A stretch of DNA of 47,331 nt, from the IMG/VR virus record IMGVR_UViG_2778261458_000002, one strand, 5' to 3'. A model generated the notes under the pieces. That model was given only the letters and a program-made list of their open reading frames with translations, did no database searches and was not told the origin of the DNA. A program made the translations under genes and the position numbers. Positions 4,318 to 20,016 of this stretch are shown piece by piece. The DNA is from a virus (lineage: Duplodnaviria; Heunggongvirae; Uroviricota; Caudoviricetes). Every line of letters starts with the position of its first letter. The first letter of the stretch is position 1.

Positions 4318-6339
4318 GTGAGTAAATTATTATTTACGATGACTGACGCCGGGCGTCAGGAGTTGGTTAATGCCAACAAAACAGGAACAAATAAAGTTGA
4401 GATTGTTTCTGTTGGTTTAGGTAGTAGATATTATGTCACGTCAACCTCACAAACAAATATAACAGACGAAATAAAACGACTTACCACAATAGGTGGCAAA
4501 GTTGTTTCCCCTGATACAATTCATGTAACGGCGAAGGATGATAGTAAAGATGAGTATGTTGTCCATACAATAGGATTGTATACAAATAAGGGAACGTTGT
4601 TTGCTGTATACTCGCAAGAACAAGCAATAATAAATAAAGCATCATCTACTATTGCTTTAATATCAAGTGACATAGCAATCAAGACTCTTGATACTAAAAA
4701 TATTACATTTGGTGATATTGAGTTTATTAATCCTCCCGCAACCGAAACTGTTGTTGGGGTAGCAAGATTTGCCAATGAACAAGAAATTGATGCAGGTACA
4801 GATGATTCCCTTGCTGTTTCAGCAAAGCGGCTTAAGCAAGCCATTGTGAAACATGAGCAATCACGTAATCATCCCGATGCAACTTTAACCTCAAAAGGCT
4901 TTGTTCAACTTAGCAGCGCCACCAATAGAACGTCTGAAACGCTTGCTGCGACGCCTAAGGCTGTTAAGGCAGCATATGACCTGGCTAATGGCAAATACAC
5001 CGCACAGGACGCTACTACAGCGCGAAAAGGGATTGTTCAGCTCAGTAGTGCCACTAACAGCACGTCTGAAGTGCTGGCCGCCACACCGAAAGCTGTCAAG
5101 GCTGCATATGACCTGGCTAACGGGAAGTATACAGCCCAGGATGCAACCACGGCTCAAAAAGGGATAGTTCAGCTCAGTAGCGACACCAACAGCACTTCTG
5201 AAACATTAGCTGCAACACCAAAAGCGGTTAAAGCTGCATACGATCTAGCAGCCGGAAAGGCACCATCCAGTCATACACATCCCTGGAATCAGATCACTGG
5301 TGTACCAACAGCTTCATTGACAGCGAAAGGCATCACTCAGCTCAGTAGTGCCACTAACAGCACGTCTGAAGTGCTGGCCGCCACACCGAAAGCTGTCAAG
5401 GCTGCATATGACCTGGCTAACGGGAAGTATACAGCCCAGGATGCAACCACGGCTCAAAAAGGGATAGTTCAGCTCAGTAGCGACACCAACAGCACTTCTG
5501 AAACATTAGCTGCAACACCAAAAGCGGTTAAAGCTGCATACGATCTAGCAGCCGGAAAGGCACCATCCAGTCATACACATCCCTGGAATCAGATCACTGG
5601 TGTACCAACAGCTTCATTGACAGCGAAAGGCATCACTCAGCTCAGTAGTGCCACTAACAGCACGTCTGAAGTGCTGGCCGCCACACCGAAAGCTGTCAAG
5701 GCTGCATATGATTTGGCTAATGGAAAGCAAGCGGCAGACGCTACGCTCACTGCTCTAGCGGCACTAGCTACAGCAGCAGATAAACTCCCTTATTTCACAG
5801 GTGTTGATCGTGCCGCGTTAACTGCATTGACAAGTGTTGGACGCGCCATTCTTGGTAAGACCAGTATTCAGAGCGTTCTTGATTACCTTGGTTTGGGAGA
5901 AGGCTCTGCATTACCTGTTGGTGTCCCTGTTCCGTGGCCTTCAGCTACGCCGCCAACAGGCTGGCTGAAATGCAATGGCGCTGCCTTTGATAAGGTTAAA
6001 TATCCCCGTCTTGCTACAGCATATCCATCAGGGAAACTACCTGATCTCCGCGGTGAGTTTATTCGTGGCTGGGATGATGGGCGCGGCATTGATACAGGGC
6101 GTGCTTTATTGAGTATTCAGAGTGATGAAGTCAGAAAGCTCGCATTAAAATACTGGGGGCCAGCTTCAAACAGTTCACCATCAAAAACATTTGCACTCAG
6201 CGACAGTGCCGGTGGCGGGTTGTACACGGATGGAATAAGTCAGGCAAGCGGTGGGATTATCAACGCTTTTCAGCTCCCTGGCGGTAACGAAACCCGCCCA
6301 CGAAATGTTGCATTTAACTATATCGTGAGGGCTGCATAA
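4318..6339 (+). CDS. tail fibre protein with tandem fibre repeats; constant part plus currently expressed variable C-terminal segment (Sv)
   Basis: 673-aa ORF; repeated 40-aa units (GIVQLSSATNSTSEVLAATPKAVKAAYDLA...); C-terminal collar-like receptor-binding domain; the inversion crossover site lies inside the gene at about 5877-5902. Confidence 0.85.
   Translation: MSKLLFTMTDAGRQELVNANKTGTNKVEIVSVGLGSRYYVTSTSQTNITDEIKRLTTIGGKVVSPDTIHVTAKDDSKDEYVVHTIGLYTNKGTLFAVYSQEQAIINKASSTIALISSDIAIKTLDTKNITFGDIEFINPPATETVVGVARFANEQEIDAGTDDSLAVSAKRLKQAIVKHEQSRNHPDATLTSKGFVQLSSATNRTSETLAATPKAVKAAYDLANGKYTAQDATTARKGIVQLSSATNSTSEVLAATPKAVKAAYDLANGKYTAQDATTAQKGIVQLSSDTNSTSETLAATPKAVKAAYDLAAGKAPSSHTHPWNQITGVPTASLTAKGITQLSSATNSTSEVLAATPKAVKAAYDLANGKYTAQDATTAQKGIVQLSSDTNSTSETLAATPKAVKAAYDLAAGKAPSSHTHPWNQITGVPTASLTAKGITQLSSATNSTSEVLAATPKAVKAAYDLANGKQAADATLTALAALATAADKLPYFTGVDRAALTALTSVGRAILGKTSIQSVLDYLGLGEGSALPVGVPVPWPSATPPTGWLKCNGAAFDKVKYPRLATAYPSGKLPDLRGEFIRGWDDGRGIDTGRALLSIQSDEVRKLALKYWGPASNSSPSKTFALSDSAGGGLYTDGISQASGGIINAFQLPGGNETRPRNVAFNYIVRAA
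5041..5711 (+). repeat. perfect 300-bp tandem duplication (2 full copies 5041-5340 and 5341-5640 plus 71-bp third partial copy) inside tail-fibre gene
   Basis: Lines 5041-5340 and 5341-5640 are base-for-base identical; 5641-5711 repeats the first 71 bp; in-frame (100 codons per unit). Confidence 0.9.
5877..5902 (-). other. inversion crossover site (left), Gin/Hin/Cin-type 26-bp site
   Basis: Reverse complement reads TTCTCCCAAACC-AA-GGTAATCAAGAA, resembling hix/gix-type sites; 15-nt core TTGGTTTGGGAGAAG is inverted-repeated at 7736-7750. Confidence 0.55.
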
Positions 6340-6941
6340 TGGATAATGCTGTATTAAATAGCGAGTTTATTGCCACGAAGGCGGGGAATATTACCGTCTA
6401 TAACTATGATAGTGAAACACGGGAATATATTTCCACATCAACTGAATATCTTGCTGTGGGGGTCGGTATTCCAGCATGTTCCTGTCTTGATGCACCTGGC
6501 ATACATAAGGTTGGTTATGCAATCTGTCGTTCTGTGAATTTAAATTCATGGAAATATGTGCCAGACCATCGCGGTGAAATCGTCTATAGCACAGAAACAG
6601 GAGAATCAAAAGAAATCACAGCTCCGGGTGATTACCCTGAAAATACAACCACTATCGCCCCTTTATCTCCATACGATAAATGGGATGGTGAGAAATGGGT
6701 GACCGATACTGAGGCACAGCATAGCGCCGCAGTCGAAGCGGCAGAAGCACAGCGCCAGTCACTGATTGATGCTGCTATGGCTTCCATCAGTCTGATTCAG
6801 CTGAAATTGCAGGCCGGACGTAAACTGACGCAGGCAGAAACAACCCGCCTTAACGCTGTGCTGGATTACATTGACGCGGTGACGGCAACAGATACCAGCA
6901 CCGCGCCGGATGTCATCTGGCCTGAACTGCCGGAGGCGTAG
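6339..6941 (+). CDS. tail fibre assembly protein (Tfa)
   Basis: 200-aa ORF with C-terminal LDYIDAVTATDTSTAPDVIWPELP motif characteristic of Tfa chaperones; start overlaps fibre stop. Confidence 0.75.
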   Translation: MDNAVLNSEFIATKAGNITVYNYDSETREYISTSTEYLAVGVGIPACSCLDAPGIHKVGYAICRSVNLNSWKYVPDHRGEIVYSTETGESKEITAPGDYPENTTTIAPLSPYDKWDGEKWVTDTEAQHSAAVEAAEAQRQSLIDAAMASISLIQLKLQAGRKLTQAETTRLNAVLDYIDAVTATDTSTAPDVIWPELPEA

Positions 6942-7365
6942 GCCATTCAATATCTGGCGCACCGGAAGTATCGACCAGTTCCAGTGCGTCCAGATAATCC
7001 AGCCACAGATTATATTGCGCCAGTTCCTCGCCTTTCAGACGACCAATAGCCGCTTTACCAGGCCATTGTTTACTGTTCATATAATCGTTGGCCTGATTAA
7101 TTAGTAGCTGTCTTTCTGATTCAGTAATTTCAATAAGTTCTTCATGCGTGGGTGGAGGAATATCTGCCCACGCAGGCAGCCCATCACCTCCGGCAATACG
7201 GATTTTTCCTTGTGGCGGTTCAGCCATAAATTCACTGATAATATTTTGATTCACCTCTTTAGCATCTGATAAATCCCATCCCTCTGATTTATATTTATCA
7301 ATCATATCCACAGGGAAAAAAGCATTATGCCTTGCGCTATAAACATATTCGTTCATATAAATCAC
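6913..7365 (-). CDS. alternative tail fibre assembly protein (Tfa')
   Basis: 150-aa minus-strand ORF with the same C-terminal Tfa motif (WLDYLDALELVDTSGAPDIEWPTPP); convergent and 3'-overlapping with tfa. Confidence 0.7.
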   Translation of the reverse strand: MIYMNEYVYSARHNAFFPVDMIDKYKSEGWDLSDAKEVNQNIISEFMAEPPQGKIRIAGGDGLPAWADIPPPTHEELIEITESERQLLINQANDYMNSKQWPGKAAIGRLKGEELAQYNLWLDYLDALELVDTSGAPDIEWPTPPAVQAR

Positions 7366-7376
7366 CCTTAATAAAA

Positions 7377-7745
7377 TTACTCACCAACAGCCCACCAACT
7401 GTAATTCATCGATACTGTGGAACTGGTTGATGCAGTTCTGTAAGCGGAATTAAAACCGGTTAATGTTGGACCTTCTGCGGACATAACGAATCCACGCCCT
7501 GCACCAAAAGGCGCACCGCCATCGCCAGAATGGGTAAGAATGGCGATATCCGCTTTTTTAGGGAAAGGGATAGGAAATGTAATCCTCATTGTTTGCGTCG
7601 ATAATTTCGGCATAGCCTCACCTCGACCATATTGCAGGATTTTCCCGTTGGGTAATTTCATCCATCCATCACCACTGGCAAAAGAGGCCATGTCCGGTAT
7701 CTGATTTTCCCCTGTCCCCACATTCCGTTTTGCCGCTTCTCCCAA
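7377..7745 (-). CDS. alternative tail-fibre C-terminal segment (Sv'), promoterless and start-less in this orientation
   Basis: Minus-strand reading frame runs from the right crossover site to a stop just before tfa'; after inversion it would fuse in frame to the fibre constant part (…DYLGLGE | AAKRNVGTG…). Confidence 0.55.
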
Positions 7746-7762
7746 ACCAACGTTTTAGTCTT
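7737..7762 (+). other. inversion crossover site (right)
   Basis: TTCTCCCAAACC-AA-CGTTTTAGTCTT, inverted copy of the site at 5877-5902, 55 bp upstream of the invertase start. Confidence 0.55.
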
Positions 7763-7816
7763 AATCCCTACCTATACCAACGATGTATTTTTAACTAAAC
7801 AAAGAGGTTGTTTTTC

Positions 7817-8371
7817 ATGCAAATTGGCTACATTCGTGTGTCAACAAATGACCAAAACACAGATTTACAAAGAAATGCACTGAACTGCGCAGGATGTGAA
7901 CTGATTTTTGAAGATAAAATATCCGGTGCTAAATCAAAACGACCAGGACTTGATAAGCTACTGAAGGTGTTACGACCGGGCGATACGGTTATTGTCTGGA
8001 AGCTGGACCGAATGGGGCGTTCTCTGATTCATCTTGTTGATTTACTTAACCATTTTTTATCAAACGACATTGAGTTTATTTCAATTACGGAAGGGATAAA
8101 AATCAGCACTTCAATTGGCCGCTTTGCCTACACGATGCTGAGTGCAGTCGCAGAGATGGAGCGGGAAAATATGATTGAAAGAACGCGTGCAGGATTGGCG
8201 GTGGCAAGGGCTAACGGCAGGATAGGAGGACGTCGCTCAAAACTGGCACCAGAGCAATGGGAACAGATCGGAAGGCTTATTGCGAATGGTGTTTCACGTA
8301 AGCGGATAGCGATTATCTTCGATGTTACCTTATCCACGCTTTACCGCAGGTTTCCGGCTGGGAATCATTGA
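7817..8371 (+). CDS. DNA invertase, small serine recombinase (Gin/Cin/Pin/Hin family)
   Basis: 184 aa from ATG 7817 (AAAGAGG RBS 9 nt upstream); MQIGYIRVSTNDQNTDLQRNAL with catalytic-Ser motif and C-terminal HTH (GVSRKRIAIIFDVTLSTLYRRF). Confidence 0.9.
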   Translation: MQIGYIRVSTNDQNTDLQRNALNCAGCELIFEDKISGAKSKRPGLDKLLKVLRPGDTVIVWKLDRMGRSLIHLVDLLNHFLSNDIEFISITEGIKISTSIGRFAYTMLSAVAEMERENMIERTRAGLAVARANGRIGGRRSKLAPEQWEQIGRLIANGVSRKRIAIIFDVTLSTLYRRFPAGNH

Positions 8372-8502
8372 CTGGAGTTAGGCCAGTAGTATGATGCTCG
8401 CAAAACGAGATCCAATTTAGATCCTTTTACTGGTGGATTATCGTTCGATCAGTGAGAGACTTCGTGCATGACCGAAAGTGTTGTGGTAGAGTTCTCTTAA
8501 AA

Positions 8503-8515
8503 CCACGTAACGTGG
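8503..8515. promoter_or_regulatory. operator-like palindrome CCACGTAACGTGG upstream of repA leader
   Basis: 11/13 match to the CCACATATCGTGG boxes found three times between the CI-like repressor gene and its divergent neighbour. Confidence 0.35.
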
Positions 8516-8559
8516 TTATGATTGTGGGTGTCTGGTTGGAAAGTGACCAGATATGGAAA

Positions 8560-8670
8560 CAAAAAGCCCGCAGATAAATCTGCGGGCTTCTTGCGACATC
8601 CACGGAAAACCAACAACTAACCATGGGCGCCTCGACAACTCCCATTATACGTTGGTTTTCCGTGGACGCA
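8560..8670 (-). ncRNA. candidate countertranscript (CopA/Inc-RNA-like) of the repA leader
   Basis: Minus-strand intrinsic terminator (AGCCCGCAGA-loop-TCTGCGGGCT then TTTTTGTTT, at 8561-8588) and a 16-bp stem (8599-8614 / 8651-8666) just upstream of the repA start; promoter not identified. Confidence 0.3.
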
Positions 8671-8681
8671 AGAGCGAACAT

Positions 8682-9530
8682 ATGGATAGACCAATGCCGT
8701 CTCTACGTTCAGCTTACGTTTGTAATTTGTCGCCGGAGTTCCAGCCTCCAAAGCACCATACGCACAAGCTGCCGCTGGTGTTATCTGATGCTTTACAGCG
8801 CATTAATGGGCGTGATCTTACGTGTGAGGTTGCGTTCTACGTTAATCAACCGTCAGAGCGGAAGCGCCGGATAAACGAGCATCGTCGTCGGGCGATTAAT
8901 GCTGTGATCGCTGCGATTTTGCACCATGTAAACATCATTTCTAAGCGGGTTCTGGCTAGTGCTGAGGCGTTGGCTGATTTTTGCGGCCTGTCTACCGTAT
9001 CCGAAGCTGGGAACAAGTCTATAACGCGCTGTACAAGGGCGTTGTCGCAACTGAAAGCGTTAGGTTTTATTGATTATGAACGTCGCTGGGATCGGGTGAA
9101 TAAACAGTATTGGCCAGCGAAAATAGAGATTCGTGATCAACTGCTGGAAACCGTTGGTATTACTGAACAAGCATGGAGACGTGCGGTTAGCCAGAAACTT
9201 AATTACTTCAATGCGAAGAATAGCGAACGGCTTAAAAAAGCGATAACGGAGGCTGATTATAAGCGTATTGTTATTCAGGAGCAGATGGAGAATGTATGGC
9301 GTCAGAGGAAGACGGCCAGAGAGATAAAGGCAAAACAGAAAGCAGCGGAGAGAGCTGCGCGTCTTGTTCAGGAAAAGGGAGAGGCCGAACTTCGTCATCA
9401 AATCACTAGAGAGGTTAGCCAGGAATTTGCTGATGGCATGTATCCTGGTGCTGACCTTGCATATTTACGATCCCTCGTTGAGCAGCGTTATAACAGGCTA
9501 AGAAAGACCTGGAAATCACTCCAACATTAA
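8682..9530 (+). CDS. repA: plasmid replication initiator RepA (IncFII RepA1-like family)
   Basis: 282 aa from ATG 8682; AGNKSITRCTRALSQLKALGFIDYERRWD and RRRAINAVIAAILHH align with my recollection of R100/R1 RepA1; upstream in-frame extension to 8553 crosses the structured leader and is rejected. Confidence 0.75.
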   Translation: MDRPMPSLRSAYVCNLSPEFQPPKHHTHKLPLVLSDALQRINGRDLTCEVAFYVNQPSERKRRINEHRRRAINAVIAAILHHVNIISKRVLASAEALADFCGLSTVSEAGNKSITRCTRALSQLKALGFIDYERRWDRVNKQYWPAKIEIRDQLLETVGITEQAWRRAVSQKLNYFNAKNSERLKKAITEADYKRIVIQEQMENVWRQRKTAREIKAKQKAAERAARLVQEKGEAELRHQITREVSQEFADGMYPGADLAYLRSLVEQRYNRLRKTWKSLQH

Positions 9531-9599
9531 CTCACCTGAATGATGAATCCGGTTTTACCGGAGGATTATCTACGTCGCAAAAAAATAGCTGTTCAAAAA

Positions 9600-9780
9600 A
9601 CAAGCTAAATTAATTTTCTCTAAACCTGAACTCAGCAAAAATATCGCCTTTACAGGTATCAACTAATCAAGTTATCCACAGTTTTGATATGTATATGCAA
9701 ATGGTTTTTTATAATAGATGCACTAAACAAATAAATGCAAAATCACTTTCTTTTATTAAAACTTTCTTTATTTAACTTAC
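9600..9780. other. probable replication origin: AT-rich region with DnaA box
   Basis: Perfect DnaA box TTATCCACA at 9672-9680 inside an AT-rich stretch directly downstream of repA; followed by three GC-rich hairpins at 9826-9926. Confidence 0.5.
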
Positions 9781-10160
9781 GCAGGCTTTGCCTGTGAATA
9801 TGTTCGCCCTTGCAGCGAGCTAAAGCTCGCGCCGGTTCGAGTCGCTACGCTCAAATATACCTCCTCCGGCACTTGCCGGAGGCATGGAGTAGCCTGATCA
9901 TCCTTTTCGAAACGGCGCGTTTCGAACTATACAAAATCAATTTATATAAGGACGAAATAAGGCCTACGGCCGGGCTTTGCAGGAGGAAGGGGGAGCCTTA
10001 TCAATAAACGTCGATAAATACGCACACAGTAGCCATCAGAACGCGATAAAACGTAAGAAACATCATTTCCTATTAGACATAGAAAAGTTGTCTTATACGC
10101 AATGTAGTAAATTTCTATTGCCACATAGGAAAAGATTTCCTACCATCGTAGATATAATAA

Positions 10161-10460
10161 ATGGAGATGGTTATGGATAAAGATACTGTTTTAAAAATGT
10201 TGAATCCGGCTTGTTTAAAAAAAGCGGATGAATGGGAGTCTCCTACATGTGGAGAAGTTCGGGCAGTCATTGGCCTGACCGGAATGAGCGGCTCGCAGTT
10301 GGCCAAAAAACTTGGCTTAAAAGATAGTCGCAATGTTCGCAATTGGCAGATGTTAAAGGAGTCCACATCCAGATCCAGCATTCCGTATGCAGCCTGGGCG
10401 CTGCTGTGTTACTTCGCTGGGTTAGGGTTAATCTTCATTGATAACAAAACAGATGTTTGA
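10161..10460 (+). CDS. hypothetical protein with possible HTH
   Basis: 99-aa ORF; GLTGMSGSQLAKKLGL helix-turn-helix-like segment; palindromic TTTCCTAT/ATAGGAAA boxes upstream. Confidence 0.4.
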   Translation: MEMVMDKDTVLKMLNPACLKKADEWESPTCGEVRAVIGLTGMSGSQLAKKLGLKDSRNVRNWQMLKESTSRSSIPYAAWALLCYFAGLGLIFIDNKTDV

Positions 10461-10747
10461 AACATGCAAATATGAGGTTTGTTATGGAACTTGTACGCAA
10501 AACACGCAAAGAGTTCTTGGACCTGTATCGCATGGGAGCTTTCACTTGTGTTGTGGCTACCCAGGACGAAGTGACAAAAAGCTGGCGGCTTTTTGCTCTC
10601 AATAAAAAAGGGATTGCCGTTTTCATTGAAAAAGCCCGTGGTGGTATCCGCGAATGGGCGGGATTGAATTATGTGGCTGATTTTTGCGCAGCTATGGGGA
10701 TTCGTCGCTGGGAAGTCCATATGCCAGGAGTAAAGTCACAAAAATAG
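10457..10747 (+). CDS. hypothetical protein
   Basis: 96-aa ORF overlapping the upstream gene by 4 nt; no family recognised. Confidence 0.35.
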   Translation: MKHANMRFVMELVRKTRKEFLDLYRMGAFTCVVATQDEVTKSWRLFALNKKGIAVFIEKARGGIREWAGLNYVADFCAAMGIRRWEVHMPGVKSQK

Positions 10748-15189: not shown

Positions 15190-15540
15190 AGTTCCCTTAA
15201 AGGTTAAGGATACTCACCACCGTCTGGTTCCAATCATTGGGTGGTGAGACGTACAGGGTTGGAACTACCGGTCACCATGGAATCCGGCGAGTCTTACGAC
15301 TCCCCCGCACGCCCCACCATAATTTGGGTGTAGCAGTGCTTTACGCATAAAAAACCGCTAACGCGGTATGCGCCATGATGATTATCGGGGTTCCAATCCC
15401 GACCGTAGATTTTGCTACGGCTCGGAAAGTGTCCACCAATGGCGCATTCATGTCAATACGGCGAGATTTTAACAGAGACAACCACATAGCGTGGGTTTGA
15501 AAAACGGAATTTTCTGTTCATTAAGCGCATGATTTGACCA
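15190..15540 (-). ncRNA. structured leader / candidate c4-like antisense RNA of the ant operon
   Basis: 350-nt untranslated region with repeated GGTTCCAAYC segments (15227, 15386) and a complementary TTGGAAC segment (15259), plus a CTCACCACC...GGTGGTGAG stem; boundaries unknown. Confidence 0.3.
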
Positions 15541-15576: not shown

Positions 15577-15687
15577 GTGTGAATGTAGGGAACTTATATG
15601 TGAGTATAAGGAACTTTGTGTGATTTATTTGCGAAAAAGTTTGCTTCATATCCAGTTTTTTGGGTATGCTGTGAATGTAGGGAACTA
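15577..15687. promoter_or_regulatory. three 17-bp direct repeats (operator candidates) in divergent intergenic region
   Basis: GTGAATGTAGGGAACT at 15581-15596 and 15671-15686, variant GTGAGTATAAGGAACT at 15600-15615. Confidence 0.4.
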
Positions 15688-15756: not shown

Positions 15757-16296
15757 ATGACTGAAACATCAAAAAATTCATGTTTTTCAACAATTCACCT
15801 AATGATCATAAAAGAACTTAGGCTGGAAAGAGGTGTGCATCAAGGAGTACTGGCTCAAGCTGCCGGAAAAACACCAAACGCATGGACAAAGATAGAGAAC
15901 GGGCAGTCTGTATTAACAGTTGATGCCCTTTTTGGTGCTTGCACAGCCCTTAATATTAGCCCAATGAATTTCATGTTGTTGGTAGAAAAACTGATTCCCG
16001 AATTTAATCGCCATGGTTACTACTTTTTCCCTGGAACAATCAGTCAGGACGAGGATAACCTTTTACCTCTGATGCTGCGTTACTTTAATAGCAAGGGGTT
16101 TGAAGCATTGAGAAATAGGCCATTCGAAAGAATTAGCATAAGCTCAATGGGATTTTCATTTGGGGGCGGCATCCCTGTTACTCCAACTGCTGTAATGTAT
16201 TGTTGCGATGAAGCATACAGAGATTGGGTCGATAACGGTGCTGATACGGATAATCGAGATTATCAGAAGCCATTAACAGGTCTTGGACTGTTTTAA
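15757..16296 (+). CDS. HTH (XRE-like) regulator, candidate repressor of the ant region
   Basis: 179-aa ORF, GAGGAGG RBS; N-terminal LAQAAGKTPNAWTKIENGQSVLTVDALF helix-turn-helix; divergent from ant operon. Confidence 0.5.
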   Translation: MTETSKNSCFSTIHLMIIKELRLERGVHQGVLAQAAGKTPNAWTKIENGQSVLTVDALFGACTALNISPMNFMLLVEKLIPEFNRHGYYFFPGTISQDEDNLLPLMLRYFNSKGFEALRNRPFERISISSMGFSFGGGIPVTPTAVMYCCDEAYRDWVDNGADTDNRDYQKPLTGLGLF

Positions 16297-18613: not shown

Positions 18614-18626
18614 CCACAAAGTGTGG
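18614..18626. promoter_or_regulatory. operator-like palindrome CCACAAAGTGTGG
   Basis: Same CCAC-N5-GTGG architecture as the boxes at 19447-19501. Confidence 0.35.
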
Positions 18627-18669: not shown

Positions 18670-19326
18670 TCATAACCAGTTGACAACACTAACTACGCGG
18701 CCAAGAACTTTATAACGCTTAAATTCCTCGTTATTCAGATGCTTAGTGTTCATTTCAGCATCCCTTTCGGTTGACAGCATAACAGCATTGTCACCCGGTA
18801 TGACTCTACAGTGCCTCAAAACAACCAGGCCATTTCTGTCTTCAAGGGCATAGATCCCCTCATGAATCTCTGTATCGTCTGTATCAATCAGGACTTGGGA
18901 GCCTGGGGATATTGTTGGTGACATTAACTCATCGTTGCTCTGGAGAACTGACAGAGACGATGGGTTGATGTTCTTGCTTCGTAGAATCTCCTGTTCTATC
19001 GCCAGCACTGGCTTTTCTCCGGCGTGCGATGCTATGTCATTTTTTATGGCTACAAGCCCAGGAATAACAGGAGCGTTAGTATTCTGGGGTGGGAACGGGT
19101 TATCTGTTAAGCACGCGATATAAGGCGCTGATGCTTTCAGGGCGTGCGCAATTTTCTTGATGGCAGGTATAGATGGTTGTCTTAATCCGGCCTCATAGTT
19201 CTGCAAGGTGCTTAAGCCTATTCCAGTGACTTGCTGGAGATCTCCGGCAGTCATGCCGGATTGTTTCCGTAGAGTCTGAATGCGCAGACCTATTTCTTTC
19301 TTGATGTTCTCGTCGTTGCTTTTCAT
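18670..19326 (-). CDS. CI/LexA-like repressor (N-terminal HTH, C-terminal S24 peptidase-like domain)
   Basis: 218-aa ORF; HTH IGLRIQTLRKQSGMTAGDLQQVTGIGLSTLQNYEAG; C-terminal domain with Ser (ELMSP) and Lys (KVLGRVV) as in autocleaving repressors. Confidence 0.75.
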   Translation of the reverse strand: MKSNDENIKKEIGLRIQTLRKQSGMTAGDLQQVTGIGLSTLQNYEAGLRQPSIPAIKKIAHALKASAPYIACLTDNPFPPQNTNAPVIPGLVAIKNDIASHAGEKPVLAIEQEILRSKNINPSSLSVLQSNDELMSPTISPGSQVLIDTDDTEIHEGIYALEDRNGLVVLRHCRVIPGDNAVMLSTERDAEMNTKHLNNEEFKRYKVLGRVVSVVNWL

Positions 19327-19364: not shown

Positions 19365-19501
19365 CCACATTTAGTGGTTTTCACATGGTAAGACGAGAGG
19401 TGGACCACAAATAGAAGGTTATTTTTTGTTTCGCCCATTGAAAAGCTCACGATATGTGGTTTTAATACCACATATCGTGGTTTTAATACCACATATCGTG
19501 G
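19365..19501. promoter_or_regulatory. operator array between divergent repressor and early genes
   Basis: CCACATATCGTGG at 19468-19480 and 19489-19501, inverted variant at 19447-19459 (21-bp spacing), variant CCACATTTAGTGG at 19365-19377. Confidence 0.55.
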
Positions 19502-19521
19502 TTTTAATTGGAGTTCGTTAA

Positions 19522-20016
19522 ATGACCTTTCAGGAGTGGGTTGACGAAAATGGAGGCCAAATTGGTGTTGCCAGAAAGTTTGGCTTTACGTCATCACTGA
19601 TTGGTGCCTGGTATCGCTTCGAGAGATTCCCTCGTGCGGATAACCTGACGCTGCTGGTGGCGTATTCGGAAGGCCGGATTAACGTCCAGCAATGGGCGGC
19701 AGATTTTGCCGAACGTCAGCGCCAGCGTAGCGATGGCACATCGGTTCGGCAGAACAAGATCAAAGGGAATCTCCCTGTTAACTGCTTATCAAGGTTGAAA
19801 GCGGTTTTCTCTGAGCTGGGGATGCCTGCGGAGCGTTGCAATCTACGCGGTCCGCGATTCATTGCTCGCTGGAAACACTCACACGTAACCGTTTCAGAGG
19901 TTCGTGATGCGATTACCGTGCTGGAGCTTAAGAATAAAGATTCCAGCGATATCGAGCTGATTCATAAGGAGATTAGCAACGCCCGGCGTTCAGCACTTGG
20001 GAGGCTTGAGGAATGA
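19522..20016 (+). CDS. early regulatory protein, possibly Cro-like
   Basis: 164-aa ORF divergent from repressor, GGAG RBS; N-terminal GQIGVARKFGFTSSLIGAW HTH-like segment. Confidence 0.35.
   Translation: MTFQEWVDENGGQIGVARKFGFTSSLIGAWYRFERFPRADNLTLLVAYSEGRINVQQWAADFAERQRQRSDGTSVRQNKIKGNLPVNCLSRLKAVFSELGMPAERCNLRGPRFIARWKHSHVTVSEVRDAITVLELKNKDSSDIELIHKEISNARRSALGRLEE

Follow-up and report, generated by a model that had tools for sequence, protein, structure and literature searches.

How can one replicon serve a phage both as a low-copy plasmid and during lytic growth, and which signals tell it which of the two is required? Phage-plasmids are common gene carriers in Enterobacteria, and how they change over from plasmid-mode to phage-mode replication has been worked out in detail in just two cases, P1, which uses two replicons, and N15, in which a repressor acts at repA. 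The question is raised again by a repA locus in a stretch of 47,331 nucleotides (hereafter the window, i.e., the whole stretch of DNA analysed), in which a site resembling the operators of a CI-like repressor lies ahead of a structured repA leader. An initial annotation had suggested that repA is wired to the lysogeny repressor as well as to a countertranscript. Conserved operator half-sites, the replacement of the site by another type of box in a second group of elements (type B) and a covarying terminator support this at the sequence level, and the locus as a whole is probably best explained as a CI-gated, antisense-controlled repA module in a phage-plasmid.

The window is a Yersinia phage vB_YpM_39-type phage-plasmid, and the records closest to it are circular. 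Elements of this type, about 48 kb in size, are common in E. coli and Yersinia; the family encompasses approximately 60 complete plasmids of E. coli, Salmonella, and Klebsiella, and the E. coli reference strain ATCC 25922 has a member on board as its 48.5 kb plasmid CP009073. The type-B group shares about 60 % identity with the window in RepA and 27-30 % in CI. No description of replication control in this family was found in the literature. The "plasmid-like" Y. pestis phage HQ103 was considered as a relative and turned out to be unrelated (the HQ103 primer does not occur in the window), and a RepA scan of species-representative genomes gave a single, spurious match in Streptomyces.

The replicon itself comprises the following parts:

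8694-9530, plus strand: repA, 278 aa from the conserved start (Pfam IncFII_repA, 1e-43)
9672-9790, unstranded: probable oriR, with DnaA box TTATCCACA and an AT-rich stretch with repeats

RepA matches Pfam PF02387 (1e-43, 150 bits, cutoff 22.9) and NCBIfam NF040977 RepA_IncFII_LM (232 bits, cutoff 70), whereas the narrow equivalog TIGR03474 incFII_RepA gives 79 bits versus a cutoff of 447, so that RepA is a distant IncFII/IncL-M-type protein and a member of the broad superfamily only. Database annotations place its start at 8553, a long start that is not conserved; the annotated start in relative L002 aligns with 8694, and an in-frame ATG at 8682 would yield a RepA of 282 aa. Searches of the element revealed neither a further initiator nor a helicase or polymerase; as the DUF3560 protein encoded at 22042-23109 matches a PHROG that bears the label primase, replication may involve functions other than RepA. 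Upstream, the invertase gene stops at 8371, and no plus-strand open reading frame of more than 41 aa lies between this point and repA (8682), which leaves no copB-sized gene, as originally noted; an 84-aa minus-strand frame has no Pfam match. Neither a tap-like nor a conserved leader peptide was found, as leader frames differ in frame and length between relatives (in-frame in the window, 46 aa in L002, 13 aa in L006 and L015, 7 aa in type B), and ATG 8623, which lies inside the leader loop, was rejected as a leader-peptide start, being missing in type B. Downstream of repA, the perfect DnaA box (9672-9680) is followed by AT-rich DNA that includes two 15-nt direct repeats at 9745-9775. This probable origin lies about 140 bp downstream of repA, the position found in R1-type replicons; one DnaA box per 47 kb compares with 0.56 expected, which is within chance and not significant alone.

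The presumed link to lysogeny consists of these elements:

8499-8519, unstranded: predicted CI-type operator AAAACCAC-GTAAC-GTGGTTAT (from motif enrichment, conserved half-sites and type-B replacement)
18614-18626, unstranded: predicted CI-type operator upstream of the partition operon (124-aa gene, ParA-like ATPase)
18670-19326, minus strand: cI-like repressor gene, HTH_3 and weak Peptidase_S24
19365-19377, 19447-19459, 19468-19480, and 19489-19501, unstranded: immunity-region operators, the last three 21 bp apart
TTGACTACAAAACGTAGCAA, in the type-B group: predicted site for the type-B CI

At repA, the operator core CCACGTAACGTGG (8503-8515) lies within a perfect 17-bp palindrome, AACCACGTAACGTGGTT (8501-8517), and deviates from CCACATATCGTGG in two of its 13 letters, in agreement with the 11 of 13 matches to the CI boxes reported before; its distance to repA, given earlier as about 170 bp, is 179 bp to ATG 8682 and 191 bp to the conserved start at 8694. 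Exact copies of CCACATATCGTGG occupy 19468-19480 and 19489-19501, and 19447-19459 deviates from it by one mismatch. Taken by itself, the 13-mer resemblance is not significant (with up to three mismatches, 17 matches versus 9.6 expected); the dyad CCAC-N5-GTGG occurs seven times in the window versus 0.41 expected, a 17-fold enrichment that none of 100 shuffles reached, and the extended motif ACCAC-N5-GTGGTT gives 13 strand-hits with at most one mismatch versus 0.46 expected. One immunity-region box is next to the cI start and the other three fill the divergent promoter at 21-bp spacing, and the motif flanks both here and at the par operon include AAAACCAC/GTGGTTTT. As the same motif fills the cI divergent promoter, the dyad at repA is assigned to CI. 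The repressor combines an HTH_3 match (4.5e-11) with a Peptidase_S24 match of 20 bits, below the Pfam threshold of 23.3, and together with phased dyads in a divergent promoter this is the layout of a lambda-type CI repressor and its operators, the S24 match being weak. Because there is only a single dyad at repA versus tandem cooperative sites at O_R, repression by CI at repA may be weak.

Relatives with a RepA 80-86 % identical to that of the window keep the half-sites AAAACCAC/GTGGTTA around the spacers GTTGT, GATGC, or GATGT, and the dyad is conserved in L006 even though this element has no invertase. In the type-B group the CCAC dyad is missing at repA, and TTGACTAC-AAAAC-GTAGCAA is present instead at the homologous position; the type-B CI and its boxes, which are mostly half-site repeats with few full dyads in the immunity region, likewise differ from those of the window. 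For example, the repA site of the type-B element L005 shares an exact 12-mer with a box of its own cI-cro region and accounts for one of the two 11-mer matches that exist elsewhere in the element (1.3 expected). L017 shows the same pattern, with a type-B box at repA, and the equivalent par-operon site of type-B elements also carries a type-B box. The non-phage relative L007, which is conjugative, is missing the operator segment and encodes its own HTH proteins upstream of repA. The presence of a type-B box at the homologous position together with a different CI supports the view that operator and immunity type vary together. A change in operator type is in every case accompanied by a change in both CI type and RepA group; PLSDB yielded neither type-B elements nor mosaics of replicon and immunity (0 mosaics), so that this linkage could not be broken and the swap alone does not tell a CI site from the site of another replicon-linked factor.

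Transcription of repA appears to involve two promoters, accompanied by a GATC cluster:

8368-8395, plus strand: P1, sigma-70-type promoter TTGACT-16-TATGAT (10/12 in the promoter scan)
8409, 8420, and 8447 (8409-8450), unstranded: GATC cluster just downstream of P1, read from the sequence
8484-8492, plus strand: P2, predicted extended -10 TGgTAGAGT, an invariant motif before the operator

P1 is a putative constitutive repA promoter and the possible counterpart of PcopB in R1; in the alignment, its hexamers are conserved in L002 and L006, and the type-B group has TTGACG-17-TAGAAT. The GATC sites downstream of it are conserved in both groups, and control by Dam/SeqA through this cluster is a guess. 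P2 would be the repressor-controlled counterpart of PrepA in R1. Its -35 is weak and it was missed by a simple promoter scan; TGnTA(G/A)AGTT is present in all of the approximately 50 related loci, directly before an operator of either type that starts 6-7 nt after the hexamer, and the operator of the window would thus cover about +1 to +21 relative to P2. Another candidate for its -10, TATGAT at 8517-8522, was discarded in favour of TGnTAGAGT because it is variable (TATGAA, TAAGAA, TAAGTA, TACGAT) and has no type-B counterpart.

On the opposite strand, the leader appears to encode a short RNA:

8557-8588, minus strand: antisense intrinsic terminator, stem 8566-8574/8579-8587 and U-run (fold)
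8557-8640, minus strand: predicted ~80-nt antisense RNA, made up of a 5' tail and two stem-loops, I and II, of which II is the terminator
8644-8671, minus strand: predicted antisense promoter, -35 TTGCGT (8671-8666), 16-nt spacer, -10 TATAAT (8649-8644)
8629-8649, unstranded: invariant 21-nt core GCCTCGACAACTCC(C/G)ATTATA, near-invariant in about 50 loci of both groups
8609-8620, unstranded: hypervariable segment (AAC-type indels), loop of antisense stem-loop I and its target

The minus-strand terminator noted in the initial annotation is real: its stem is followed by UUUUUGUUU (plus strand 8565-8557) on the minus strand and by UUCUUGCG, which is not a T-run, on the plus strand. In an RNAalifold analysis of eight sequences it comprises 13 pairs, of which four in the stem and one flanking are changed on both sides and none is broken, and the plus-strand A-run at this position is conserved in all groups. 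A fold with two stem-loops is predicted for the antisense RNA in all relatives. The antisense -35 matches only 3/6, which explains why the simple promoter scan did not list this promoter, and the perfect TATAAT is invariant in all loci, 55-60 nt upstream of the covarying terminator in every relative. At the -35, TTGC(G/A)T is conserved (type B: TTGCAT-18-TATAAT), and L007 has TTGAAA-16-TATAAT, a strong promoter at the same place, before a single-hairpin antisense RNA. Read on the minus strand, the invariant core encompasses the -10, the predicted transcription start, and the initial ~10 nt of the antisense RNA, and it differs only at the C/G position and by one substitution each in L003 and L006; the predicted 5' end is at about 8636-8640. 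The promoter spacer (8665-8650) coincides with the 3' arm of the long leader stem described below. With the promoter thus placed between the stem arms, the antisense RNA would be about 80 nt long and lack the 16-bp stem: countertranscript control as first proposed is supported by the terminator, but the stem counted among its hallmarks would fall outside the RNA. The antisense gene is hence a prediction from promoter, terminator, and covariation. Among 12 distinct leaders from 27 loci, 13 of 19 variable columns fall within 8609-8620, with operator, arms, core, and RBS invariant, which makes this segment a candidate determinant of specificity and incompatibility. An Rfam cmscan (E<=10) over 7500-10500 found neither CopA (RF00042) nor another plasmid ctRNA family, the sole matches being sub-threshold terminator look-alikes (Thr_leader, CsrC). 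The label "IncFII/IncI-type" used initially hence suits the mode of working and the broad RepA family, but does not extend to membership in the CopA family.

The sense leader is predicted to fold as follows:

8530-8552, plus strand: first leader hairpin, sense RNA only (fold)
8588-8674, plus strand: long sense-leader hairpin and proposed switch, closing in every relative
8650-8696, plus strand: predicted alternative anti-RBS hairpin, in which the freed 3' arm 8650-8664 pairs with 8681-8696 (constrained folds)

Near-identical elements vary at two spots, one of which is the loop of the first hairpin (columns 8539-8544). The long hairpin consists of an outer helix (8588-8595/8667-8674) and the 16-bp stem reported before (8599-8614/8651-8666), whose arms are indeed perfectly complementary, around the core. 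It closes in every relative through unrelated arm sequences, which MAFFT and RNAalifold could not align across groups, and the leaders were therefore folded one by one. The leader of the window folds far better than shuffles on either strand (z = -10.2 on the minus and -8.4 on the plus strand). Mismatches in the long stem are C.A on the plus strand (G.U on the minus strand) in L006 and L028, and U.G on the plus strand in L002, an asymmetry that does not assign the stem to one strand. As the antisense promoter is situated inside the stem loop, the long stem would form only in the sense leader, where it appears to act as a switch. The anti-RBS hairpin covers both ATG 8682 and ATG 8694. The mean pairing probability around the start codon was uninformative and was replaced by the opening energy with a shuffle control: upon occupation of the antisense target, the predicted energy required to open the RepA RBS rises by 5.2 to 8.7 kcal/mol in all nine sequences, from both groups, a difference reached by only zero or one of 60 shuffles. 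Since the outer helix of the free mRNA sequesters the SD-like AAGAG before ATG 8682, the ON state is not simply "open". Inspection for a pseudoknot partner of the invariant core gave no convincing candidate.

Combined, these features suggest that 8368-8700 controls a theta replicon of the IncFII/IncL-M type, which would serve plasmid maintenance as well as lytic amplification. Transcription of repA would start at P1 and, further downstream, at P2, and CI would bind AAAACCAC-N5-GTGGTTAT at +1 to +21 of P2, shutting this promoter in the lysogen and possibly impeding read-through from P1, and would in this way do in this element what CopB does in R1. The minus-strand RNA, some 80 nt long and made constitutively from TTGCGT-16-TATAAT, would start near 8636-8640, end at the terminator (8557-8588), and pair with the 5' half of the long leader hairpin. 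In free mRNA the 5' arm would hold the 3' arm; once both the loop and the 5' arm are taken up by the antisense RNA, the released 3' arm (8650-8664) would pair with 8681-8696 instead, bury the RepA start codons, and block translation. Inactivation of CI, either through its S24-type domain or by an Ant/Rha-type anti-repressor, would let P2 fire, whereupon repA mRNA would presumably outrun the antisense RNA and lead to copy-number run-away for lytic growth.

Several other readings have to be weighed against this CI-gated, antisense-controlled module. It is rather unlikely that the dyad is a CI operator without any P2, with CI at about +100 of P1 serving only as a roadblock or insulator that trims read-through into repA, be it from the late tail-fibre/invertase operon or from P1: the consensus scan found no promoter other than P1, the genes upstream run in the same direction as repA, and the -35 of P2 is poor, but TGnTA(G/A)AGTT stays invariant while its flanks and even the operator type change, and an operator 6-7 nt after the hexamer sits in the classical position for promoter occlusion. 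Binding of the dyad by a replicon-encoded or host factor (e.g., RepA autoregulation), with the likeness to CI boxes due to ancestry or chance, is very improbable. Although operator type tracks RepA group too and replicon and cI are always co-inherited, the same motif with its flanks recurs at 21-bp phasing in the cI divergent promoter and again before the par operon, no copy is present in the probable origin (9530-10100), where RepA would be expected to bind, L007 lacks the segment and has its own HTH proteins, and L005 shares the 12-mer between its repA site and cI-cro box. Least probable of all, to the point of being negligible, is a chance match or a degenerate cix-like invertase site. The true crossover sites are at 5885-5902 and 7736-7753, and the left flank of the palindrome, TTCTCTTAAAACC, resembles the half-site CTTCTCCCAAACC of the latter; the palindrome lies 130 bp from the invertase gene. 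Its half-site spacing of approximately 9 bp is however wrong for a Hin/Gin/Cin-type site, in which it is 2 bp, and the cix/hix reading is effectively refuted by this spacing in conjunction with the 17-fold enrichment of the motif, its retention in the invertase-less L006, and its replacement by the type-B CI box.

As for the antisense RNA, it might start beyond 8674 and contain the whole long hairpin, with CopA-like loop-loop kissing of two full hairpins, which is the picture that the initial annotation had drawn. This is unlikely, for no conserved minus-strand promoter was found upstream of 8674 (the weak TAGAGA-17-TATGTT of the window is missing in L002) and the perfect TATAAT in the loop is invariant in all loci and coincides in place with the strong antisense promoter of L007; what speaks for the longer RNA is that the minus strand from 8680 to 8555 folds at -69.5 kcal/mol (z = -10), that it is at least as stable as the plus strand in most relatives, and that some stem mismatches are G.U on the minus strand only. 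Improbable, too, is the absence of any regulatory antisense RNA, such that the GC hairpin (8561-8588) merely stops sporadic transcription of the minus strand and the long hairpin affects translation only in cis. This would fit with the lack of an Rfam family at threshold, but would leave the invariant TATAAT 55-60 nt from a covarying terminator in every relative, the hypervariable loop between invariant stems, and the specific RBS response to target occupation to be accounted for, and antisense control is the rule in the RepA superfamily (PMC5717011).

If the CI-gated module works as proposed, the locus suggests a third, compact solution to the replication switch, namely an R1-like, antisense-controlled two-promoter replicon whose auxiliary repressor is the lysogeny repressor, and would provide a direct link between induction and run-away replication. 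Its parts are small and defined (an operator of 21 bp, the ~80-nt RNA, and the switch in the leader), and it might thus be usable as an inducible copy-number device. More tentatively, and as an idea that we regard as plausible, if somewhat short of probable, a portable module may have swapped CopB for the prophage CI, such that one IncFII-like replicon covers both low-copy and lytic replication, the CI-gated P2 setting the mode and the antisense leader switch the copy number. The operator would then co-evolve with the immunity repressor across at least three virion types, and the hypervariable antisense loop would diversify incompatibility among co-circulating elements. In any case, this loop offers a natural data set on the evolution of incompatibility.

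The proposed design resembles those of R1 (CopB/CopA), with CI in the role of CopB, and of N15/phiKO2 (CB-repA). R1 combines a constitutive PcopB with a CopB-repressed PrepA, CopA, and tap (PMC5717011). The window shares with R1/R100 a RepA of the same Pfam family, a DnaA box and probable origin on the downstream side of repA, two predicted promoters with the repressor site at the downstream one, a predicted constitutive countertranscript from the leader, and a predicted indirect inhibition through an antisense target upstream of the RBS. Unlike R1/R100, it has no copB, the proposed repressor being the prophage CI, which is encoded 10 kb away and common to the immunity switch; its RNA is not detectable as Rfam CopA, its RepA stays far below the TIGR03474 cutoff (79 versus 447 bits), and the predicted inhibition involves no conserved tap-like peptide but a refolding of the leader onto the start codon.

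In N15/phiKO2, CB binds two OL operators (OL1/OL2) that overlap the repA promoter, lowers copy number, and is missing the conserved self-cleavage residues (PMC4997575), in contrast to the weak S24 match of the window CI. Common to both would be that one protein couples immunity to copy number and that a single rep gene serves both life styles, and O_R-type dyads are found in the window both in the repA promoter region (8503) and at 19365-19501. N15 differs in having two operators versus one in the window, and the cited paper contains no IncFII-type countertranscript or leader switch (PMC4997575). Its genome is linear with telomeres, whereas the closest records of the window are circular, and the window RepA belongs to PF02387 and is not a homologue of N15 RepA. 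The latter is an unrelated multidomain initiator of the primase/helicase type.

With the I-complex and IncL/M replicons (ColIb-P9, pMU720, pMU604/pOXA-48), which rely on Inc RNA/RNAI, a repY/repB-type leader peptide, and a pseudoknot, the window shares the RepA superfamily and a short predicted antisense RNA with a terminator hairpin at its end. In the relative L007, the antisense RNA forms a single hairpin, and its UUGGCG target loop is of the kind typical of this group. The window differs in that neither TTGGCG nor CGCCAA occurs in its leader (8553-8700), in that no conserved leader peptide or pseudoknot partner was found, and in that its antisense RNA is predicted to form two stem-loops. 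P1, finally, is likewise a plasmid prophage in which operators of the immunity repressor are dispersed over the genome and include a replication function. Maintenance of P1 as a plasmid is the task of one replicon, the iteron-controlled repA/oriR, and lytic growth that of another, the C1-controlled repL, whereas a single replicon apparently does both jobs in the window, where a dispersed operator is also predicted at the partition operon.

The DNA analyzed here is a plasmid prophage (phage-plasmid), since it unites virion genes with a RepA, a partition operon and a cI-like repressor. Its segment 8372-9900 is 99.9% identical to Yersinia phage vB_YpM_39 (49 kb, circular) and 96-100% identical to ~60 plasmids, non-mobilizable and 47-49 kb in size, whose hosts are E. 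coli, E. albertii, E. fergusonii and Klebsiella, including the plasmid of E. coli ATCC 25922. The gene content encompasses contractile-tail virion genes, toxin-antitoxin genes, an Ant/Rha anti-repressor, a ParA-type partition operon and the cI-like repressor, whose product shows an HTH and a weak S24 match, while RepA is a member of the IncFII Pfam family. No second initiator, helicase or polymerase was recognisable in the element, the sole further replication-like match being a DUF3560 protein to a PHROG labelled primase; lytic amplification is presumably also driven by RepA and oriR. Databases place the RepA start at ATG 8553 (325-326 aa), from where coding would cross the terminator and the long hairpin of the leader; as the start kept among relatives is 8694 (278 aa), the longer form is probably an annotation artefact.

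All sequence features listed in the initial annotation were found where it had placed them. Its proposed likeness between CCACGTAACGTGG upstream of repA and the CCACATATCGTGG boxes of the cI promoter is not significant for the 13-mer itself (17 matches with up to three mismatches versus 9.6 expected), whereas the underlying dyad CCAC-N5-GTGG is significant (7 copies versus 0.41 expected), and its extended form ACCAC-N5-GTGGTT, with at most one mismatch, gives 13 strand-hits versus 0.46 expected. The dyads and neighbouring features are located as follows:

5885-5902 and 7736-7753: crossover sites ACCTTGGTTTGGGAGAAG / CTTCTCCCAAACCAACGT, 18 nt, inverted, 94% complementary
7808-8371: Hin/Cin-type invertase, beside the invertible tail-fibre segment
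8368-8395: predicted upstream repA promoter P1, TTGACT-16-TATGAT, the single promoter found by scan, kept in both replicon groups
8501-8517: CCAC-N5-GTGG near repA, a perfect 17-bp palindrome
8694-9530, plus strand: repA
15482-15494: CCAC-N5-GTGG in the region that separates the Ant/Rha anti-repressor gene from an HTH gene (15757-16296)
18614-18626: CCAC-N5-GTGG upstream of the partition operon (124-aa gene and ParA-like ATPase)
18670-19326, minus strand: cI-like repressor gene
19365, 19447, 19468 and 19489: four CCAC-N5-GTGG copies in the cI divergent promoter, with 21-bp phasing of the last three

The analysis is computational throughout, with relatives drawn from PLSDB, IMG/VR, metagenomes and assemblies. 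In relatives with RepA 80-86% and leader DNA ~76% identical, the site at repA reads AAAACCAC-GTTGT-GTGGTTAT in a Salmonella relative, AAAACCAC-GATGC-GTGGTTAA in a K. aerogenes relative and AAAACCAC-GATGT-GTGGTTAA in L015, a window-like (type A) locus; such kept half-sites and flanks around a free spacer are the pattern that would be expected of a repressor site. In the second RepA/CI group (type B: L004, L005, L017, L018, L020-L024 and others), RepA is ~60% and CI merely 27-30% identical. The CCAC dyad is absent from the type-B cI-cro region, which carries another repeated box, (A/T)TTGTAGTCA, likewise with 21-bp phasing. In an alignment spanning both groups' leaders, the window dyad comes straight after a conserved TGnTAGAGTT, and type-B elements have at the same position TTGACTAC-AAAAC-GTAGCAA, of the dyad form CTAC-N5-GTAG. 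An unbiased k-mer comparison in L005 yielded only two 11-mers outside the cI-cro region that match it (versus 1.3 expected), one at the repA site (an exact 12-mer) and one at the edge of cI; in L017, 10-mers of its own cI-cro region match the repA site and a site upstream of the partition operon. The latter site switches type with the immunity region (window 18614-18626, L005 18827-18836, L017 13190-13200). Thus at least two loci, repA and par, change operator type along with the immunity region, and it would seem that the lysogeny repressor governs partition in addition to replication. Across ~50 loci, only two operator types occur, at constant position. The swap alone is nevertheless no proof of CI as the binder, since CI type and operator type are without exception inherited together with the replicon group; CI is the candidate on the grounds that the motif fills the cI divergent promoter and has no copies in 9530-10100, the stretch with the probable origin (9672-9790).

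In every locus, the operator is immediately preceded by an unvarying TGnTA(G/A)AGTT, which looks like an extended -10 promoter and is the predicted downstream repA promoter P2. With a start 7 nt downstream of it, a type-A operator would span ~+1 to +21 and its type-B counterpart +6 to +25. In plasmid R1, PcopB is constitutive and PrepA is ~90% repressed by CopB (PMC5717011). The layout predicted for the window, two promoters of which the downstream one has a repressor-type site, mirrors that of R1; however, the auxiliary repressor of R1 is CopB, whereas the window operator is of the prophage repressor's type, and a copB-sized ORF was not found at the locus, as the initial annotation had stated. 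A conjugative-plasmid relative (L007, RepA 63% identical) is devoid of the operator segment; immediately before its repA stand two small HTH genes, an arrangement that fits a replaceable "auxiliary repressor" slot. In N15 and phiKO2, two OL operators overlap the repA promoter, and CB, which binds both, reduces the copy number of the prophage (PMC4997575); this offers, by analogy, an experimental precedent for an immunity repressor acting at repA. Upon induction, loss of CI would open P2, and repA mRNA would then exceed the antisense RNA. Three GATC sites lie within 42 bp (8409-8450) just downstream of P1, and both replicon groups keep a GATC cluster there, of 3-4 sites in type B; that this reflects Dam/SeqA-dependent control of repA transcription after replication is pure speculation.

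On either strand, the leader is far more stably folded than its shuffles (z = -10.2 on the minus and -8.4 on the plus strand). The minus-strand terminator proposed earlier is borne out by hairpin 8566-8587, which is followed by a U-run on that strand only and in which, over 13 pairs in 8 sequences, two-sided changes occur in four stem pairs and one flanking pair, with no pair broken. A 21-nt core, GCCTCGACAACTCC(C/G)ATTATA (8629-8649), shows essentially no variation across the loci of the two groups amid diverged surroundings; its minus strand contains a perfect TATAAT (8649-8644) with TTGCGT or TTGCAT 16-18 nt before. At the equivalent position, L007 has TTGAAA-16-TATAAT before a single-hairpin, Inc-RNA-like antisense, with a target loop containing UUGGCG. 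Core, equivalent promoter and terminator together predict an antisense RNA of ~80 nt, starting near 8636-8640 and ending near 8557, which in every relative is predicted to fold into a 5' tail, stem-loop I and a terminator stem-loop. No Rfam family matched the antisense or the leader. In a comparison of 27 near-identical type-A loci, whose leaders fall into 12 distinct sequences, 19 columns vary, 13 of them in 8609-8620, the loop of stem-loop I, while operator, stems, core and RBS are invariant. Hypervariable loops are the pattern where antisense loops determine incompatibility. This hot spot is the AAC-repeat segment of the antisense/target loop, and a second one occupies 8539-8544, the loop of the first leader hairpin. 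Between groups with RepA 60% identical, the core is conserved well past the needs of a -10 hexamer, and the identical stretch includes the first ~14 nt of the predicted antisense RNA and hence the centre of the target loop.

The 16-bp stem (8599-8614/8651-8666), initially taken as a hallmark of countertranscript control, is present but no part of the predicted antisense RNA: it can form in the sense leader only, because the spacer of the predicted antisense promoter coincides with its 3' arm (8651-8666). A long helix around the core is closed in every relative, with 16 bp plus an outer helix UUCUUGCG/CGCAAGAG in type A and 9+7 bp plus an outer helix of wholly different sequence in type B; judged by these comparisons, the stem is under selection. 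When the antisense-complementary part of the leader is masked, the 3' arm, now released, is predicted to pair with 8681-8696 and so to cover both candidate starts. In 9 sequences from both groups, opening the RBS at the homologous RepA start is then predicted to cost 5.2-8.7 kcal/mol more; for each of 5 sequences, 60 shuffles of the RBS window, matched in composition, included 0-1 that reached the observed value. This modelling supports indirect inhibition of translation by leader refolding rather than R1 tap-coupling or an I-complex pseudoknot; neither a conserved leader peptide in the repA leaders nor a pseudoknot partner in the leader was found. In the Salmonella salamae plasmid CP053324 (L003, 21079-21904), repA is split between two frames (tblastn) and the long leader stem is reduced to ~10 bp; the replicon is either in decay or affected by a sequencing error. 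Type-B loci (L005, 9516-10004; also L004, L017, L018 and L021) contain between leader and repA an ORF of 158-162 aa that is ~30% identical to the N-terminal half of RepA. As it overlaps the repA start by ATGA, the type-B leader looks to control a truncated RepA paralogue to which repA would be translationally coupled.

With its predicted two promoters, auxiliary repressor and countertranscript, the locus would work in the manner of R1, and with its predicted immunity repressor at repA in that of N15. The locus is, however, a member of neither system, because its RepA passes the broad IncFII/IncL-M model only, CopA, copB and tap are missing, and RepA and genome form differ from those of N15; the "IncFII/IncI-type" label describes a mode of action, not membership. 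For this phage-plasmid family, the searchable literature, whose coverage is incomplete, contained no description of replication control, which leaves absence unproven. The locus represents a tidy, widespread and easily testable design and no new principle. One replication-control module is joined to at least three virion modules, including a Mu-type baseplate (L004, L005, L020, L021, L024) and a lambda-type tail (L022/L023), and L007 carries a related RepA alongside type IV secretion. As at least three virion types carry it, the module is, on sequence grounds, mobile among phage-plasmids.

Beyond the dyad at 15482-15494, a 17-nt direct repeat, TGTGAATGTAGGGAACT, occurs three times in 15578-15686 (spacing 21 and 71 nt), and dyad and repeats may mark a second regulatory (anti-immunity) locus. 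In the cI region (window 19483-19530), most E. coli relatives give BLAST alignments that end at 19483-19486, suggesting that elements differ in how many 21-bp operator repeats their rightward promoter carries. The crossover sites bracket alternative tail-fibre C-termini and assembly genes (6339-6941, plus strand; 6913-7365 and 7377-7745, minus strand). Downstream of the probable origin, 9800-9990 contains a series of short inverted repeats rich in GC, such as gcgagctaaagctcgc, ccggcacttgccgg, cgaaacggcgcgtttcg and ggcctacggcc.
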